Positions 4,747 through 63,465 of a DNA stretch of 64,000 bases are shown here, in pieces (the first letter of the stretch is position 1; each line of letters starts with the position of its first letter). A program made the position numbers and the translations under genes. Below the pieces are notes generated by a model. The model saw only the letters and a program-made list of their open reading frames with translations, was not told the origin of the DNA and searched no databases. Where the stretch lies: NCBI GenBank assembly GCA_036439915.1, contig GCA_036439915.1_3065.1; one strand, written 5' to 3'. This stretch comes from a phage.

Positions 4747-5493
4747 TTATCCTCGGATAAGTTTAAAAATTGAACAATTTAGCGGGTATCCTCTTTTCAG
4801 TTTAAGTTTATCAATAAAAGACAAGTTTTGATACCGCTCTACACCTTGAATAATTTTATCACACATATCATATTGCATTTCTGCTTCTGACAACTTTTTC
4901 ACAATTTTCCAATCCGAGCCTTTAAGAAGAACGTTCAGTTTAACAACTTCAGCGCCTTCTGCTATGCGAGAACCATCAATACGAGCTTTAAGTGCTATAA
5001 TCGTTAGCTTAATGTCAGAGGTCTGTTTTGATTTAGAAAGCTGAGAAATGTGTTCAATTCGATTTTCACGTTTTTTCTGTATAGCTTTAATTTGATTATA
5101 AGTCTTTTTGATTTTAGCCCATTTCTTTTCATCTAAATTTAGTTTATGAACTTTTTTCGCAGATGAACGGCCAATTCGCAAAGCAAATAAATCACGCTTT
5201 TCAATCAACTCTTCTAAAGTATAATCAGAACGAAATGTATTATACTTTTTCTTTACTGCAATAACATTCCCTTTAATGTATCCAATGTTATTATCAAAAC
5301 GTTCTAATGATAATTTCTCTCCTTCAATACGATTATCAAAAGGTTCTCCTGAATAGGCACAAACTTTTTGATCTAAAATGTTCTTAATGTAATTGAAGTC
5401 TAAGTTAAAATCTTTAGAACGTCTTTTTGCAGATGCCTGAGTGTGCTCTAAACGACGTTTAATTTTACGAATTTGATTATTAGACAATTTCAT
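4747..5493 (-). CDS. srd: Srd-like protein (anti-sigma/sigma-like), assigned by position
   Basis: 248 aa between dda.1 and modA as in T4; preceded by early promoter. Confidence 0.5.
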   Translation of the reverse strand: MKLSNNQIRKIKRRLEHTQASAKRRSKDFNLDFNYIKNILDQKVCAYSGEPFDNRIEGEKLSLERFDNNIGYIKGNVIAVKKKYNTFRSDYTLEELIEKRDLFALRIGRSSAKKVHKLNLDEKKWAKIKKTYNQIKAIQKKRENRIEHISQLSKSKQTSDIKLTIIALKARIDGSRIAEGAEVVKLNVLLKGSDWKIVKKLSEAEMQYDMCDKIIQGVERYQNLSFIDKLKLKRGYPLNCSIFKLIRG

Positions 5494-5528
5494 ATTTTTC
5501 TCACATCTTACGGACGATTGACTACTAT

Positions 5529-5558
5529 ACTATAACATTTTTACCTTAGCTTGTAAAC
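5529..5558 (-). promoter_or_regulatory. sigma70-type early promoter (GTTTAC -35, 18 bp, TATAGT -10)
   Basis: minus-strand GTTTAC...TATAGT read directly; upstream of srd. Confidence 0.6.
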
Positions 5559-5615
5559 AACTTTATGTAAAAATGCTTTAAAACTTTCGTGGTATAATGA
5601 ATCTAAGTCCTTCCA

Positions 5616-6218
5616 TTATAGATTAAATCTTTCAAAATCAAGAGTATAGATAGTGTATGTTGAATACTTTTTATACTCATATCTATCTGCAATTCTAAAT
5701 ACACTTCCAGCTGGTATCATTACTTCTTGTTCATCTGAAACTAATTCCATATTACGATAACGATGACTATCCGGAAACTTAAAGTTTGGATTGTATTCTT
5801 TACAGCGTAGAGCTTTTATAGCATACTCCTGGAAATTGAATACCATAGGAGCTTTGAATTCAAAAATAACCTGTGTGTTATACTCTAAACCGGAAGCAAA
5901 ATGTAGAGCTATATTTTTATCATATGAAGCTGATACTACTTTATCAAATGTAATAATATCAATTCCTTGATTTAACACTTGCTTAGTCTCGACTGGAACA
6001 CCTCTCCAAAGAGGTTTATCGTTTGGTTCCAAACGAGATTTGATTATTTCATTTAACCAAGTATGGTCATCTGGTTTGTTGGTAATACAATGAATTAAAA
6101 GTTCAATTTCAGATAAATTAAACCCTTCAGAAAGTAATTCTTCACGAATAGAAGCACGCACCGATGCATCCATTGATTTTATTTTAAAATCTTTTAGTTG
6201 CATTACTGAGTATTTCAT
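5616..6218 (-). CDS. modA: ADP-ribosyltransferase ModA
   Basis: 200 aa, R (LWRGV), S-x-S and EQE-type ART motifs; same size as T4 ModA; adjacent paralog. Confidence 0.7.
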   Translation of the reverse strand: MKYSVMQLKDFKIKSMDASVRASIREELLSEGFNLSEIELLIHCITNKPDDHTWLNEIIKSRLEPNDKPLWRGVPVETKQVLNQGIDIITFDKVVSASYDKNIALHFASGLEYNTQVIFEFKAPMVFNFQEYAIKALRCKEYNPNFKFPDSHRYRNMELVSDEQEVMIPAGSVFRIADRYEYKKYSTYTIYTLDFERFNL

Positions 6219-44758: not shown

Positions 44759-45727
44759 TTATTTCAGAAGAGTAACTTCAGCGATTTCTTCCCAACCGTT
44801 TTTGTCGGTCATAATAAAGTCAGCAAGATAAAGTGCAGTACGCAGTGAAACATTGCGTAAACGATTAACATTGACTTTCATCCATGATAATGCTTTATAA
44901 GTTTCTTCATCAGAAAGACCGCGCTTTTGCATCATGTCAGTTGAAAGAATAACATCTTCAACCCTGACCATAATTTCTTCATTAGTGTGAACACCCAAAT
45001 CCAAATAAACCGAGCGGGACACTAATGCTTGTAAATGTGGAGCAAGTTTAGTACCACGGTCTAATTCGCGGTCAATGTCAACGTTTGTGATAAAAACAAT
45101 CGTTCCTTTAAATTCAAACTCACGGTCAATGCCTTTTTCTTCTAAGTAAGAAGATGCGGTGCTCCAGCAGACTTTACGGGTCTCTCCAGTGTCCAGAGCA
45201 GCTTTTAGAAGATTAAGAATGTCCATATCAGAGAAAACATCCACATCATCAATCAAAAGGACAGAATTCTCTTCACGATTATTCCAAAGTTGTTCATAAA
45301 GACCGATACCGGAGATTTTACCATTAATGCTTTTATATTCAATGTATCCATTATCATTTGCTTTATTTAAAGCTTTATCTAAAGAATACGTTTTACCAAT
45401 ACCCGCCGCACCAGAGATAATTAATGAACGAATGTTTCCATTAATAATACCATTCGTCATCATTCCCATAACATTAAATCTTTTATTAATGCGGGTTTTC
45501 ATATCTTCATATGATTCTTTAACTTCTTCAACTTTTACACCATCATATGAAATGTCTGATTTGTAAACCCAAACACCACGACGTTTACCGTCAATTTCAA
45601 CAAAAACTTTACCATCTCCTTGTGCATCTACCGGAGCATTATCTGGGAACCATTCGCCTAAGAGCTCAAAAGTTCCAGAGATTTCTTTACCGAAGTAGAT
45701 ACCCTTATTGATAGTTACAGTTTTCAT
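44759..45727 (-). CDS. P-loop ATPase (AAA-like), nrdC.10 position
   Basis: 322 aa from internal Met after promoter leader; Walker A GAAGIGKT, Walker B VLLIDDVD. Confidence 0.6.
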   Translation of the reverse strand: MKTVTINKGIYFGKEISGTFELLGEWFPDNAPVDAQGDGKVFVEIDGKRRGVWVYKSDISYDGVKVEEVKESYEDMKTRINKRFNVMGMMTNGIINGNIRSLIISGAAGIGKTYSLDKALNKANDNGYIEYKSINGKISGIGLYEQLWNNREENSVLLIDDVDVFSDMDILNLLKAALDTGETRKVCWSTASSYLEEKGIDREFEFKGTIVFITNVDIDRELDRGTKLAPHLQALVSRSVYLDLGVHTNEEIMVRVEDVILSTDMMQKRGLSDEETYKALSWMKVNVNRLRNVSLRTALYLADFIMTDKNGWEEIAEVTLLK

Positions 45728-45761
45728 TTTATTCTCCAAATCCGTATCAGTTGATAGTTGT

Positions 45762-45791
45762 ATAGTACCATAAAGCTTTATGTTTGTAAAC
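45762..45791 (-). promoter_or_regulatory. sigma70-type early promoter with conserved leader
   Basis: GTTTAC, 18 bp, TGGTACTAT, leader ACAACTATCAACTGATACGGATTTGGAGAAT. Confidence 0.6.
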
Positions 45792-45811
45792 AACTTTGTG
45801 AAAAATTTTTG

Positions 45812-45841
45812 AAATAAAAAAGGGAGCCCGAAGGCTCCCTA
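45812..45841 (-). terminator. intrinsic terminator after nucleotidyltransferase gene
   Basis: GGGAGCC-TTCG-GGCTCCC hairpin plus T-run. Confidence 0.6.
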
Positions 45842-46855
45842 TCATTTATAATAACTTCGGTGGTTTTCAAGATAGACCTTCTCAAGGAAGTCATCCCAGA
45901 AACTCATGTCTACTTTTTGCTGCATACCGTTCTTAGAAGCTTCAGTAGATGCTTCTTCTACTTGATCGACCACATCTTCCAAAAACTCTTGAACTGTTTT
46001 AAATGGATGCTTACCCAACTTCACGTCGAGAATAAAGGGAGCATCTTGAAGTGGATAGACTAAGTCACCAGTTTTGTAAATTTCCAATAGTTGAAGTCCA
46101 CCACGACAAGCATGACTTAGTGCTTTCCAATCAATGCCTTCATTGGCTTCGGCCTTACGAGCACGTTCACCGTATTCAGCATCTAATTTGTTCAGTGACT
46201 GCTTAAGCTCAATAAGAGAAAGCGTTGTCTGATATTTACGACCCAACACAGTGTAGAACGTTTGTGGGCCTGTTTTCTCATGATTATGGAACACCCATTC
46301 ACAGAATTCGTTTTCTGGAAGACGATGCTTAATATCTTCAACTTTAGTGCGACGCTGCTTAATAGAACCATCTTCTTGGTAATCAACCCATTGCTCGGGG
46401 ATTTGATTAACTACTTTCAATACATCACGTAATGCAGCCAAACGAGAACCCTTGACACCGTATTTAGAAGCTTGCTTGCGGACATATCCTAAATAGGATT
46501 TCATGTTAGTCGTATAAAAACGAGAACGGTTGTCTTGAATAAACTTCCACACATCAGGCAAATCAGATTTAACCACTAGTTCAGGTGGAGTGTGAAGCAT
46601 ATCCAATGCTACAGTTTCACCATCTGCTGCTAATTTAAAGAAATATTTAAGACTGTATAGTTCATGGTCAATATCATCTTTGGTGTTTTTAGATGATGTG
46701 TTGTTAGTGTTTTTACTCATATGCTCTTTAACATTTCCAATAAGAATATCACGAGCAGGAGGAACAAAGATTTCTTTAAAATCTACATCAGATTCTGGAG
46801 TAGAAGTTCCATAAAGATGACTACCAAAATAGCTTTTCATTACTGTTTTCATCAT
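45842..46855 (-). CDS. Pol-beta superfamily nucleotidyltransferase (nrdC.11 position)
   Basis: 337 aa; N-terminal FGSHLYGTSTPESDVDF fits the GS...[DE]x[DE] NTase signature; function not assignable from sequence. Confidence 0.55.
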   Translation of the reverse strand: MMKTVMKSYFGSHLYGTSTPESDVDFKEIFVPPARDILIGNVKEHMSKNTNNTSSKNTKDDIDHELYSLKYFFKLAADGETVALDMLHTPPELVVKSDLPDVWKFIQDNRSRFYTTNMKSYLGYVRKQASKYGVKGSRLAALRDVLKVVNQIPEQWVDYQEDGSIKQRRTKVEDIKHRLPENEFCEWVFHNHEKTGPQTFYTVLGRKYQTTLSLIELKQSLNKLDAEYGERARKAEANEGIDWKALSHACRGGLQLLEIYKTGDLVYPLQDAPFILDVKLGKHPFKTVQEFLEDVVDQVEEASTEASKNGMQQKVDMSFWDDFLEKVYLENHRSYYK

Positions 46856-47313
46856 TCAGCCTTATATTCAATAACAGGACATACTTTAGCTTTACGAGCT
46901 TTTAAAAATTCAACGATAATCGATTTCTTGGGTTGAATAGGAGGTAAACCTTTATACGCTCTATCAATATTTTCTACGTGTAAAGCATAGTCCTTTTTCC
47001 ATTTATAATCTTTATATTTTTCACGCAAATGTGCAGGAATAACAAATGAACCGATAATAAGTAAAACAACCAAAAGCGCAAGTATAAATGCTGATGGAAG
47101 CAAAGTCCATAAACTACCGAAAATAAGCCAACGTTGTAGGCTTTCTGCACAAATAATTGTTAACCCTACGAGTATAGCACACCCAAAAATAGAAACGAAA
47201 AATGTAGGAATGGCAATAGACCAAAAATATGCGCATAATGTCTTAGGTCGTTTCCATTCATCATTAAACATTTTGAATAATTTATAGTGCCAAGAGCTTT
47301 CATTAATAATCAT
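46852..47313 (-). CDS. multi-pass membrane protein, translationally coupled to the nucleotidyltransferase
   Basis: 153 aa, 3-4 hydrophobic helices; ATGA overlap with downstream NTase start. Confidence 0.5.
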   Translation of the reverse strand: MIINESSWHYKLFKMFNDEWKRPKTLCAYFWSIAIPTFFVSIFGCAILVGLTIICAESLQRWLIFGSLWTLLPSAFILALLVVLLIIGSFVIPAHLREKYKDYKWKKDYALHVENIDRAYKGLPPIQPKKSIIVEFLKARKAKVCPVIEYKAE

Positions 47314-47315
47314 AA

Positions 47316-47837
47316 TTATCCTTTCATTGAAGGTGTAACAGTTGTTAAATACTTAATCATAGCTTCAGCTTCTGATTTTGATAATGAAATTTCTCCATTG
47401 TTTTGACGAATAGAAATAAAATCCGGATGACGGTCACCACCAGCTTTCAAAACACACATATAAGTATCAGTTTCATCTTCAATATTTGAAATGATTGAAG
47501 CAGTTCCACATGAATGGGGTTTTTGATAAATCAATACGGCTTTTCTTCCACCGTTTGACTGTTCATAAACTTTTAACACATCAAACAAATCACTTCTTTT
47601 ATCAATAGCTAAGATGTTATTTTCATCTTCAATGTTAAATCCTTCGGATACTTCATAAAGTGTCACCCATAAATCACCTATATCGATAGTAGCATTTACT
47701 TTTCCATGGCTTTCAAGAGCATGACAAATTTTCTTGATTTCGTCATAACTCATTTTAATAATATCATCTCCTTGAATAAGGAAGATGTCATTTTTAAATT
47801 CAACACGAATTAAACCACTTTCACTTGAAATAAACAT
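47316..47837 (-). CDS. hypothetical protein, paralog of 47844..48401
   Basis: 173 aa; C-terminus SKSEAEAMIKYLTTVTPSM resembles neighbour TKDEAIALKTYLDSVIPTM. Confidence 0.5.
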   Translation of the reverse strand: MFISSESGLIRVEFKNDIFLIQGDDIIKMSYDEIKKICHALESHGKVNATIDIGDLWVTLYEVSEGFNIEDENNILAIDKRSDLFDVLKVYEQSNGGRKAVLIYQKPHSCGTASIISNIEDETDTYMCVLKAGGDRHPDFISIRQNNGEISLSKSEAEAMIKYLTTVTPSMKG

Positions 47838-47843
47838 ATTTCC

Positions 47844-48401
47844 TCACTTTGAAATCATAGTTGGAATGACAGAATCAAGATAAGTCTTTAGCGCAATAGC
47901 TTCGTCTTTGGTAAATGTAACAATATGTGATCGAAAATCGTCAATTTGACGAATAGTTAAGACATCTCCCTCTTCATAACATTTTGATACATTTAAAAGA
48001 GTTTCATCATTCTGATTGCAAGCGTTAGTAATAATAGCATTGCAATTTTTAAGCCATTTTAAACTATGTTTTCTTTCATTAGAATAATAAAAATATTTAA
48101 TCTTAGCTATAAAACTATCCCAATGGATAACTGATAAACACATTGACTCACTGTTAATATTAAATCCTGGGCATGAAGAATAAAAATGAATTTTGTGCTC
48201 ATCATTGATGCTTACTATTTTATCAGTATAAGGATATTCAATTTGGGTTAAATGAATGATTTCACTAGGCGTAAAATATAGCATATCGTCTTCTTGTGTC
48301 AAACGATACATGTTATTTACTTTTTCTATAGCCAATTCACCAAAAAGCGGACTAACTTCTAATACTAATCGTTTCATATTGATTCTCTTCGACTCACCCA
48401 C
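47844..48401 (-). CDS. hypothetical protein, paralog of 47316..47837
   Basis: 185-aa ORF; shared C-terminal motif. Confidence 0.5.
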   Translation of the reverse strand: MGESKRINMKRLVLEVSPLFGELAIEKVNNMYRLTQEDDMLYFTPSEIIHLTQIEYPYTDKIVSINDEHKIHFYSSCPGFNINSESMCLSVIHWDSFIAKIKYFYYSNERKHSLKWLKNCNAIITNACNQNDETLLNVSKCYEEGDVLTIRQIDDFRSHIVTFTKDEAIALKTYLDSVIPTMISK

Positions 48402-48536
48402 AATTACATACTCCTTTGAATAATATCAATAATGTTGTTCACCAGATTATAAGTAAACATCGGGTAATTATATTGAATCATCACATACACAACAAACAAA
48501 ACTTTCATTCTCTTCTCCTTGACAGTTGACAAGATT

Positions 48537-48566
48537 ACTATACCATAACCTTGCCAACTTGTAAAC
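48537..48566 (-). promoter_or_regulatory. sigma70-type early promoter
   Basis: GTTTAC, 18 bp, TGGTATAGT; followed by a 34-codon hydrophobic ORF (about 48404..48508). Confidence 0.55.
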
Positions 48567-62444: not shown

Positions 62445-62520
62445 TGGTCGAGGCAGTAGGGATCGAACCTACGACCTAGGACTTAGAAGGTCCTTGCTCT
62501 TCCTTCTGAGCTATGCCCCG
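62445..62520 (-). tRNA. tRNA-Arg (UCU)
   Basis: cloverleaf folded by hand; anticodon loop CUUCUAA; T-loop GGTTCGATCC; CCA encoded. Confidence 0.8.
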
Positions 62521-62524
62521 TAAT

Positions 62525-62600
62525 TGGGGTGACCGATGGGAGTCGAACCCATGACTACGAGAATCACAATCTCGAGTTCTACCAACTGAACTACGGCCAC
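62525..62600 (-). tRNA. tRNA-His (GUG) candidate
   Basis: cloverleaf with anticodon loop TTGTGAT, discriminator C, CCA encoded; no encoded G-1. Confidence 0.6.
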
Positions 62601-62715
62601 ATTAATACCTACTCCAACAATCAAGATGTCTTCACACGAAATTAAGAGAAGAGTGATCAGTTCAACCCCTATAATCGCGTCAAGTAGATATTAATGTGAC
62701 AGTTGTCACAAATTT

Positions 62716-62789
62716 GGCGGACGTGATAGGATTCGAACCTATAACCAATCGCTTAACAGGCGATCGCTCTGCCATTGAGCTACACATCC
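62716..62789 (-). tRNA. tRNA-Asn (GUU) candidate
   Basis: cloverleaf; anticodon stem ATCGC/GCGAT, loop CTGTTAA; T-loop TTCGAAT. Confidence 0.65.
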
Positions 62790-62793
62790 AAAT

Positions 62794-62880
62794 TGGTGGG
62801 GAGTGATGGAGTCGAACCACCCGAGTCGTAATGACAATGAATTTACAGTCCACACCGCTACCTCTACGGGATAACTCCCC
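62794..62880 (-). tRNA. tRNA-Tyr (GUA) candidate, type II with long variable arm
   Basis: 87 nt; acceptor GGGGAGT/ACTCCCC; loop CTGTAAA; variable stem GTC/GAC; D-arm imperfect. Confidence 0.5.
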
Positions 62881-62892
62881 TAATTCATAATT

Positions 62893-62967
62893 TGGTGGCC
62901 CTGGGTGGAATTGAACCACCATCTGGCGATTATGAGTCGCTTGCTTGAACCTTCCAGCTACAGGGCC
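62893..62967 (-). tRNA. tRNA-Ile/Met (CAU)
   Basis: acceptor GGCCCTG/CAGGGCC; anticodon loop CTCATAA. Confidence 0.7.
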
Positions 62968-62968
62968 T

Positions 62969-63044
62969 TGGTGCTGATTGACGGAATCGAACCGCCGACC
63001 TTCTCATTACAAGTGAGTTGCTCTACCTACTGAGCTAAATCAGC
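62969..63044 (-). tRNA. tRNA-Thr (UGU)
   Basis: canonical cloverleaf; anticodon loop CTTGTAA; T-loop TTCGATT. Confidence 0.8.
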
Positions 63045-63049
63045 AAAAC

Positions 63050-63139
63050 TGGCGGAGGTGATAGGATTCGAACCTATGAATCGCCGGAGCGACTGCCGGT
63101 TTTCAAGACCGGTGCATTCAACCACTCTGCCACACCTCC
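63050..63139 (-). tRNA. tRNA-Ser (UGA), type II
   Basis: 90 nt; anticodon stem CCGGT/ACCGG, loop CTTGAAA; long variable arm. Confidence 0.8.
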
Positions 63140-63141
63140 AG

Positions 63142-63215
63142 TCTCCATACAAGGATTTGAACCTTGGACCTCCTGATCCCAAATCAGGCGCTCTACCAAA
63201 CTGAGCTACACGGAG
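63142..63215 (-). tRNA. tRNA-Pro (UGG), CCA not encoded
   Basis: anticodon stem CCTGA/TCAGG, loop TTTGGGA; abuts tRNA-Ser as in the T4 Pro-Ser dimer. Confidence 0.75.
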
Positions 63216-63225
63216 TAAATTAAAT

Positions 63226-63299
<74 letters not shown>

Positions 63300-63304
63300 A
63301 AATT

Positions 63305-63391
63305 TGGTGCGAGAAGTGGGACTCGAACCCGCAAGGAAATCATTCCGCAGCATTTTAAGTGCTGTGCCTTTACCAATTTGACCATTCTCGC
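63305..63391 (-). tRNA. tRNA-Leu (UAA), type II
   Basis: 87 nt; anticodon stem CAGCA/TGCTG, loop CTTAAAA; long variable arm. Confidence 0.8.
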
Positions 63392-63392
63392 G

Positions 63393-63465
63393 CTGGGAAT
63401 AAAGGACTCGAACCTTTGCATCCTGGAATCAAAATCCAGTGCCTTACCAACTTGGCTAATTCCCA
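63393..63465 (-). tRNA. tRNA-Gln (UUG), CCA not encoded
   Basis: acceptor TGGGAAT/ATTCCCA; anticodon loop TTTTGAT; abuts tRNA-Leu as in the T4 Gln-Leu dimer. Confidence 0.75.

Follow-up and report, generated by a model that had tools for sequence, protein, structure and literature searches.

What does a nucleotidyltransferase (NTase) gene do when its start codon overlaps the stop codon of a gene for a small membrane protein? The question is raised by positions 45,842 to 48,566 of a 64,000-nucleotide stretch of phage DNA (contig GCA_036439915.1_3065.1 of GenBank assembly GCA_036439915.1; the whole stretch is hereafter the window). A first-pass annotation, made from the letters alone, had proposed that a 337-aa NTase of the Pol-beta superfamily, possibly of the cGAS/OAS/CD-NTase kind, and a 153-aa membrane protein might form a nucleotide-signalling module within one early operon. 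The open reading frames (ORFs) concerned, of 337, 153, 173 and 185 aa, are all present on the minus strand (45842..46855, 46852..47313, 47316..47837 and 47844..48401, respectively), and the observation was confirmed, with its interpretation only partly supported. We found that the 337-aa gene is the already catalogued T4 gene nrdC.11 in its usual place, probably acting in RNA-end repair by analogy with characterised relatives, and that the membrane gene is a variable neighbour of the NTase gene, not its signalling partner.

Identity and family of the 337-aa nucleotidyltransferase

The window comes from a Tequatrovirus (T-even phage). The ~3-kb region analysed matches several hundred Tequatrovirus genomes at 96–98% identity (phage AR1 at 97.5%), and the 337-aa protein is 99% identical to NrdC.11 of phage T2 and 96–99% identical to its counterparts in ~490 phage records, the length in T-even phages being 336–337 aa. 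The gene is flanked by nrdC.10 and the mobD.x/rI genes and followed by the same terminator, as in AR1 and T4. T4 NrdC.11 (SP:P39242, as cited in the KVP40 record) is an orthologue of the same length and position, but the upstream neighbours differ (mobD in T4; the membrane gene and a second y05I paralogue in the window). Orthology and synteny thus bear out the suggestion that this is the T4 nrdC.11 position and that the gene is conserved rather than new. The orthologues in AR1 and relatives are annotated as nrdC.11 with the RefSeq product 'nucleotidyltransferase', homologues were found in 1,518 phage records across the T4-like family, and the match of nrdC.11 to the COG3541 nucleotidyltransferases was recorded already in 2006 (PMC1524935). 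The gene and the residues discussed below are as follows.

45842..46855, minus strand: nrdC.11 orthologue, RlaP-family (PF10127) Pol-beta nucleotidyltransferase, 337 aa (orthology, Pfam, PHROGs, structure model, hhalign)
46778..46828, minus strand: catalytic signature FGSHLYGTSTPESDVDF, residues 10–26 (G11–S12 and the predicted metal-binding D23 and D25; invariant columns, aligned to canonical RlaP)
46667..46669, minus strand: codon of D63, the putative third catalytic Asp (invariant; on strand 62–68 of the structure model)

In Pfam, the NTase matched RlaP (PF10127, 'RNA repair pathway DNA polymerase beta family') with E = 1.4e-11 and 45 bits (gathering score, 23), the match spanning only positions 23–142 of the 249 in the profile. 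The generic NTP_transf_2 and all other Pfam families were sub-threshold. PF10127 was precomputed on all 120 homologues among the matches listed, and the PHROGs search returned phrog_388 'nucleotidyltransferase' (E = 4e-137). A search of NCBIfam with the NTase gave only sub-threshold noise (MntA, 13 bits against a cut-off of 60), and the NTase matched none of the PADLOC profiles at E ≤ 0.1. Homologues were abundant, an exhaustive HMMER search yielding 3,468 representative clusters at E ≤ 1e-3, mostly full-length and 310–350 aa long.

G11, S12, D23, D25 and D63 show no variation across 53 aligned homologues with 33–54% identity to the query. Because the first four of these are invariant, FGSHLYGTSTPESDVDF is not a chance match, and the GS…SDVD motif on which the first-pass annotation relied (residues 10–26) is real. 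A comparison of a NrdC.11-like profile with ten canonical 255-aa RlaPs by hhalign gave 94.5% probability and E = 8e-8, over residues 6–131 only. The GS, DxD and third-Asp ('lD') stretches of NrdC.11 align with those of canonical RlaP, and our own residue-level reading of this alignment would pair D63 with the invariant D73 of canonical RlaP.

The AlphaFold2 (AF2) model of the NTase (predicted local distance difference test, pLDDT, 94.3) has a Pol-beta core at residues 1–113, helical segments at 119–150 and 214–336, and a beta-rich insert at 155–209. The insert (window 46227..46391) was modelled as five strands and one helix between the helical parts, and could be involved in substrate binding. 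The best fold matches were HalB, 3c18, MNT-type NTases, LinB and KNT, with a HEPN/KNT-C-like helical bundle; kanamycin and lincosamide nucleotidyltransferases and MNT antitoxins share this plan of a minimal NTase core plus a KNT-C/HEPN-like helical domain. Searches of a PDB copy without the PfRlaP coordinates, by phmmer and with a profile of the 53 sequences, gave no relevant match. The AF2 core, the RlaP score and the conserved catalytic acids bear out the Pol-beta superfamily assignment.

The narrower assignment to cGAS/OAS/CD-NTases did not hold. SMODS (PF18144), Mab-21 and OAS1_C had no Pfam match at E ≤ 1, no PADLOC profile matched at E ≤ 0.1, and the fold comparison of the NTase model recovered neither a match to these families nor a bilobed cGAS/OAS-like fold. 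They have only the Pol-beta superfamily core motif hG[GS]...[DE]x[DE] in common with NrdC.11; their family-specific lobes have no sequence, profile or structural match in it, and no gene for a signal-sensing effector is found nearby. NrdC.11 belongs to a distinct subfamily of the RlaP (RNA-ligase-associated Pol-beta) nucleotidyltransferases.

The public annotation of this gene is uneven. Many GenBank/UniRef NrdC.11 records read 'thioredoxin', apparently taken from nrdC, and one reads 'HNH homing endonuclease'; the misannotation is spreading.

RNA-repair context and proposed function

Phage T4 provided the first example of RNA repair, in which Pnkp and RNA ligase 1 (Rnl1) undo the cleavage of tRNA-Lys by PrrC. 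RloC-type nucleases have been proposed to defeat Pnkp/Rnl1 repair by also excising the wobble nucleotide.

Two RlaPs from Pseudomonas, PfRlaP and PaRlaP, have been characterised in a December 2025 preprint (PMC12776372). They add 1–2 nucleoside monophosphates (NMPs), from any nucleoside triphosphate (NTP) or dATP, to RNA 3'-OH ends, with best activity in Mn2+ and little NTP specificity, and are inactive on DNA and protein, leaving E. coli proteins unlabelled (PMC12776372). Given a tRNA mimic nicked in the anticodon loop, they extend the 3' end at the nick in preference to the acceptor end, and they partly rescue the aminoacylation of a tRNA that has lost one nucleotide before ligation; the authors proposed that RlaP opposes ribotoxins, such as RloC, that trim cleaved tRNA (PMC12776372). 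The PfRlaP crystal structure has an N-terminal NTase domain and a C-terminal helical domain that together form a cleft, and T4 NrdC.11 is listed in PF10127 in cluster 5 of the sequence similarity network (SSN), with the characterised enzymes in cluster 1a (PMC12776372). The distribution of RlaP among jumbo phages mirrors that of RNA ligases (PMC7824862). As the idea of repair by RlaP is already in print (Burroughs and Aravind 2016, as credited in PMC7824862 and PMC12776372; also Carruthers et al. 2025), there is no new kind of system in the window.

NrdC.11 resembles the Pseudomonas enzymes in scoring above the PF10127 gathering threshold and in its aligned GS...DxD...D residues, and it may share with them the order of an NTase domain followed by a helical domain, to judge from the AF2 model, in which the beta-rich insert interrupts the helical part. 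To reveal the genomic context of the subfamily itself, we retrieved 80 cellular loci with full-length NrdC.11-like proteins and counted neighbours in 68 of them. The commonest neighbour was a canonical RlaP gene directly downstream on the same strand (10–12 of 68 loci), and in 10 of 11 loci with this direct placement the gap was −20 to +44 bp. Other neighbours no more than two genes away included PNKP_ligase, AAA_33/Metallophos (Pnkp-type domains), RtcA, RtcB, Hen1_L, a T4-type RNA ligase (RNA_lig_T4_1), Ro60/TROVE, and HD and S1 domains. In at least 17 of the 68 loci, canonical RlaP, TROVE or Pnkp was encoded no more than four genes away. Both canonical RlaP and NrdC.11-like genes are linked to RNA ligase and end-healing genes in cellular genomes. 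What this adds to the published picture is that RNA-repair neighbourhoods in cells are home to the NrdC.11-type subfamily as well as to canonical RlaP, with the former often directly upstream of the latter. The tandem arrangement suggests two non-redundant paralogues working together.

The tandem loci are L042, L058, L064, L070, L073, L091, L093, L094, L096, L107 and L110, with the NrdC.11-like gene at ~5001–5980. Their canonical RlaPs are 255 aa long and match PF10127 with E-values down to 6e-81, and the overlap between the two genes is sometimes 4 bp.

Given this family membership and context, we propose with moderate confidence that NrdC.11 is an RlaP-type enzyme that adds 1–2 nucleotides to broken RNA 3'-OH ends, serving tRNA repair against host anticodon nucleases. 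D23, D25 and D63 would bind two divalent metals, and an NMP would be moved from an NTP onto the 3'-OH of the broken RNA, 1–2 nucleotides being added. Where host RloC-type anticodon nucleases trim nucleotides from cleaved tRNA, NrdC.11 would restore them, in a step after end cleaning by Pnkp and before sealing by Rnl1, both encoded elsewhere in the genome; nrdC.11 would be expressed as the last gene of a five-gene early transcription unit. If NrdC.11 does restore trimmed nucleotides, T-even phages hold a third repair activity that answers RloC-type nucleases. We infer the RNA substrate, the 1–2 nucleotide addition and the anti-ribotoxin role by analogy with the Pseudomonas enzymes.

Two other uses of the same fold were weighed against tRNA repair at the broken anticodon loop. 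The first is tRNA 3'-end maintenance, in which NrdC.11 would extend the acceptor (CCA) end of phage or host tRNAs and supplement the host CCA-adding enzyme. The chemistry would be the same RNA 3'-OH extension, and the window carries an 11-gene tRNA cluster (62445–63465). A further point in its favour comes from Rheinheimera phage Barba19A (L038:2247-4900), in which a CCA-adding tRNA nucleotidyltransferase and a 'hydrolase' are followed by an RlaP homologue as the third gene; the run resembles a cassette for maintaining RNA 3' ends, here in a phage that is not T4-like. However, the Pseudomonas RlaPs favoured the anticodon-loop nick over the acceptor end in vitro (PMC12776372), their little NTP specificity is a poor fit to CCA rebuilding, and the cellular neighbours of NrdC.11-like genes are ligases and end-healing enzymes, not CCA enzymes. 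We consider acceptor-end maintenance unlikely.

The second is modification of a protein or small molecule, as by MntA, which AMPylates HEPN RNase toxins, or by aminoglycoside and lincosamide NTases, so that a host abortive-infection toxin would be neutralised. The fold matches listed above include enzymes of these kinds, but the family-level match is to RlaP, the MntA score is the sub-threshold one given above, and the characterised RlaPs left E. coli proteins unlabelled (PMC12776372). No HEPN gene is adjacent to nrdC.11 in the phage, and none recurs beside the cellular homologues. A role of this kind is quite improbable, and a MNT–HEPN toxin–antitoxin pair in particular was rejected for want of both score and partner gene.

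Several points weigh against a repair function for NrdC.11. The 1–2 nucleotide addition is carried over from Pseudomonas RlaPs of another subfamily (SSN cluster 1a, not 5), and homology to the characterised enzymes can be detected solely within the N-terminal ~130 residues. NrdC.11 is ~80 aa longer than Pseudomonas RlaP, its insert at 155–209 has no aligned counterpart in canonical RlaP, and its C-terminal ~200 residues do not align; a caution from our comparison is that the alignment to the characterised enzymes extends no further than the catalytic domain. Both the tandem arrangement and the divergence of the C-terminal half hint that the NrdC.11 type and canonical RlaP have different tasks, and direct transfer of function from canonical RlaP is uncertain because tandem occurrence hints at non-redundant activities. 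About 75% of the cellular loci had no RNA-repair neighbour. The T4 region nrdC.11–mobD.3 can be deleted without loss of viability and is dispensable for laboratory growth, and thus no phenotype ties nrdC.11 to repair (PMC9825161).

Unlike Pseudomonas RlaP, NrdC.11 in the window has no adjoining ligase gene. AR1, the closest sequenced relative, encodes pseT (Pnkp) and rnlA (Rnl1), which lie ~80 kb from nrdC.11 and outside the region covered by the window. T4-like phages have the NrdC.11 type only; the phages with canonical RlaPs are instead jumbo Pseudomonas phages and actinophages. The numbers of NrdC.11, Rnl1 and Pnkp records were near-equal in phages of Escherichia (609, 637 and 635, respectively), Klebsiella (286, 287 and 287), Shigella (83, 83 and 83) and Acinetobacter (69, 69 and 70). 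These counts fit the repair model but do not discriminate, since NrdC.11, Rnl1 and Pnkp all belong to the core of the T4-like phages (Straboviridae), any gene of which would be distributed in this way.

The distinct C-terminal half, the beta-rich insert and the frequent tandem pairing with canonical RlaP could also be cited for a product or substrate that differs from that of RlaP. In T-even phages, such a product (e.g., a short oligonucleotide) might act on the co-translated membrane protein or on a Hailong-type nucleotide-gated channel of the host, as an anti-defence decoy. We regard this as very improbable.

The membrane protein and its linkage to the nucleotidyltransferase

The gene upstream of nrdC.11 is given below.

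46852..47313, minus strand: predicted two-pass membrane protein, 153 aa (phrog_944 'membrane protein'; hydropathy; AF2 model)

The 153-aa protein had been read as having 3–4 transmembrane helices; hydropathy and the AF2 model make two long helices likelier. Two hydrophobic blocks were detected at residues 27–56 and 63–95, with 5 Lys and Arg residues in the N-terminal segment, 1 in the loop and 15 in the C-terminal segment. The AF2 model (pLDDT 88.7) has helices at 26–65 and 68–120, and the extreme N- and C-terminal strands pair. Given the hydrophobic blocks, the distribution of Lys and Arg, and the modelled helices and strand pairing, the protein is most likely a two-pass inner-membrane protein with both termini on the same side, predicted to be cytoplasmic. 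It matched no Pfam family, and its model had no fold match in the PDB, HalA included.

Conservation in the membrane family is concentrated in two terminal motifs, SWHYK...LCxYFW and KARKxKxCP. The only invariant residues are S7, W8, H9, Y10, L26, C27, Y29 and C145, with K143 nearly invariant. They sit in both terminal segments, which meet on the same side of the membrane in the model, and could form a small metal- or ligand-binding site.

The proposed signalling or mimicking module would need the NTase product to act on this co-translated protein or, in the manner of Hailong, on a host channel as a decoy. The nearest comparison is with Hailong HalB (PDB 9dbh/9dbj), of which 121 residues superpose on NrdC.11 at 17% identity. 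This likeness is limited to the generic core, and Hailong activity is Tyr-primed oligo-dA synthesis. The NTase and the membrane protein were not recovered as members of the HalB and HalA families: the NTase has no PADLOC match, a scan of five proteins with PADLOC gave nothing relevant (the sole listing being a chance-level E = 0.022 for the membrane protein), and the membrane protein lacks fold similarity to the HalA channel or any other PDB chain.

Hailong is an obligate two-gene operon, and the phage pairing is not conserved. We surveyed 39 loci with NTase identities of 27–99%. A membrane homologue was found within 4 kb upstream of the NTase gene in 29 of them and was lacking in 10, T4 among them. 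The two genes abut in only 15–17 loci, all from the closest genera, and in 12 loci the membrane gene is 344–1676 bp away with intervening genes. The upstream neighbour is interchangeable, and T2 is among the phages that carry a truncated membrane gene. The family was detected in 904 phage records, as against 1,518 for the NTase. Members also occur in lambdoid prophages without an NTase, and no recurring membrane protein was found beside the cellular NrdC.11 homologues (68 loci). A conserved signal-activated effector gene was likewise not found at the phage loci, where the upstream neighbour varies and no sensor domain can be recognised in the membrane protein. Together with the lack of cGAS/OAS/CD-NTase features, these results make a signalling module a highly unlikely reading of the locus, and its rejection is one contribution of this analysis.

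The overlap of the two genes had been taken as translational coupling. The ATGA shared by the NTase start and the stop of the 153-aa ORF is present (gctgaATGAtgaaa), but it is not distinctive: a 4-bp overlap occurs at 15 of the 111 same-strand junctions within the window, and the NTase start keeps it in other phages, whichever gene is upstream. As a sign of pairing the overlap was thus rejected; it reflects the compact packing of T4-like genomes rather than a functional pair. Nor did a search for some other conserved partner upstream of the NTase succeed, as the upstream neighbours belong to at least four unrelated families, plus singletons.

In T4 (L002, NC_000866 56429-57208), nrdC.11 is immediately preceded by mobD, a HNH homing endonuclease gene that replaces the membrane gene and the second y05I paralogue, and in an IMG/VR relative (L009:3201-4004) a HNH homing endonuclease gene lies between the membrane gene and the NTase gene. 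The placement of mobD is a clear example of endonuclease-driven neighbourhood turnover.

A y05I-like ORF precedes the membrane gene in ~25 of the 29 T4-like loci that have one (e.g., L006–L027), and it is short (~65–95 aa) in more distant genera. The membrane gene thus seems more stably linked to the y05I-like gene than to the NTase gene.

In lambdoid/P22-like prophages, homologues encoded in early regions (L119:5001-5474, L120:5001-5429 and L121:1307-1735) share the motifs of the membrane protein, as SWHYR...LCxYFW...KAxxxKxCP. Their neighbours include Cro/CI-like repressors, NinB/NinG, integrase and a P22-type portal, and no NTase or y05I gene was found near these three.

The predicted transcription unit and its surroundings

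Five co-oriented genes on the minus strand (mobD.2, mobD.1, the y05I paralogue, the membrane gene and nrdC.11) are bounded upstream by an early-type promoter-like site and downstream by a strong terminator. The features other than nrdC.11 and the membrane gene, in the order of transcription, are the following.

48537..48565, minus strand: candidate promoter-like site of sigma-70/T4-early type (TTTACA, 17-nt spacer, TATAGT; TG before the −10; 10/12 consensus matches)
48404..48508, minus strand: mobD.2 orthologue, 34-aa hydrophobic peptide, first gene of the putative operon (AAGGAG precedes the ATG; 31/34 identical to T4 MobD.2)
47844..48401, minus strand: mobD.1 orthologue, 185 aa from GTG or 177 aa from ATG at 48377 (PF24449 E = 1e-38, PF24448 E = 7e-21; 86% identical to T4 MobD.1)
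47316..47837, minus strand: second, diverged y05I-family paralogue, 173 aa (PF24449 E = 9e-33, PF24448 E = 2e-23; 25% identical to T4 MobD.1)
45811..45840, minus strand: predicted intrinsic terminator directly after the nrdC.11 stop (8-bp stem with 6 G–C pairs, UUCG-type loop, T-run)

The first-pass annotation had placed four genes in a single early operon. Its promoter-like site and terminator were found again, both calls resting solely on consensus matches, but a fifth gene had been overlooked: the 34-aa mobD.2 ORF sits between the promoter-like site and the 185-aa ORF. The stem of the predicted terminator (45840..45821) is followed by the T-run TTTTTATTT. A near-consensus promoter-like site at 48275..48302 (minus strand; TTGACA, 16-nt spacer, TATATT, TG; 11/12 matches) lies within the mobD.1 coding sequence. 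It outscores the proposed operon promoter, and may be either a promoter internal to the operon or a coincidental match.

The 185-aa and 173-aa proteins had been described as paralogues, which holds in that both match Pfam T4_y05I_N and T4_y05I_C ('putative transcription factor' domains); they are very diverged, however, with 86% and 25% identity to T4 MobD.1, respectively. The length of 185 aa presupposes a GTG start, and MobD.1 of phage AR1 is annotated from the ATG, with 177 aa. The 173-aa paralogue is missing from T4, where mobD occupies the region. RefSeq carries the product name 'molybdopterin-guanine dinucleotide biosynthesis protein MobD' on MobD.1, MobD.4 or MobD.5, apparently from the gene symbol alone.

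Downstream of the terminator lies nrdC.10 (44759..45793, minus strand), which encodes a P-loop ATPase with weak, sub-threshold Pfam matches of AAA/STAND type and weak matches to clamp-loader PHROGs; it is present in 26 of the 39 compared loci. Further along the window, the tRNA cluster at 62445..63465 (minus strand) comprises genes for Arg, His, Asn, Tyr, Met/Ile-CAT, Thr, Ser, Pro, Gly, Leu and Gln. T4 has eight tRNA genes, fewer than the 11 of the window.

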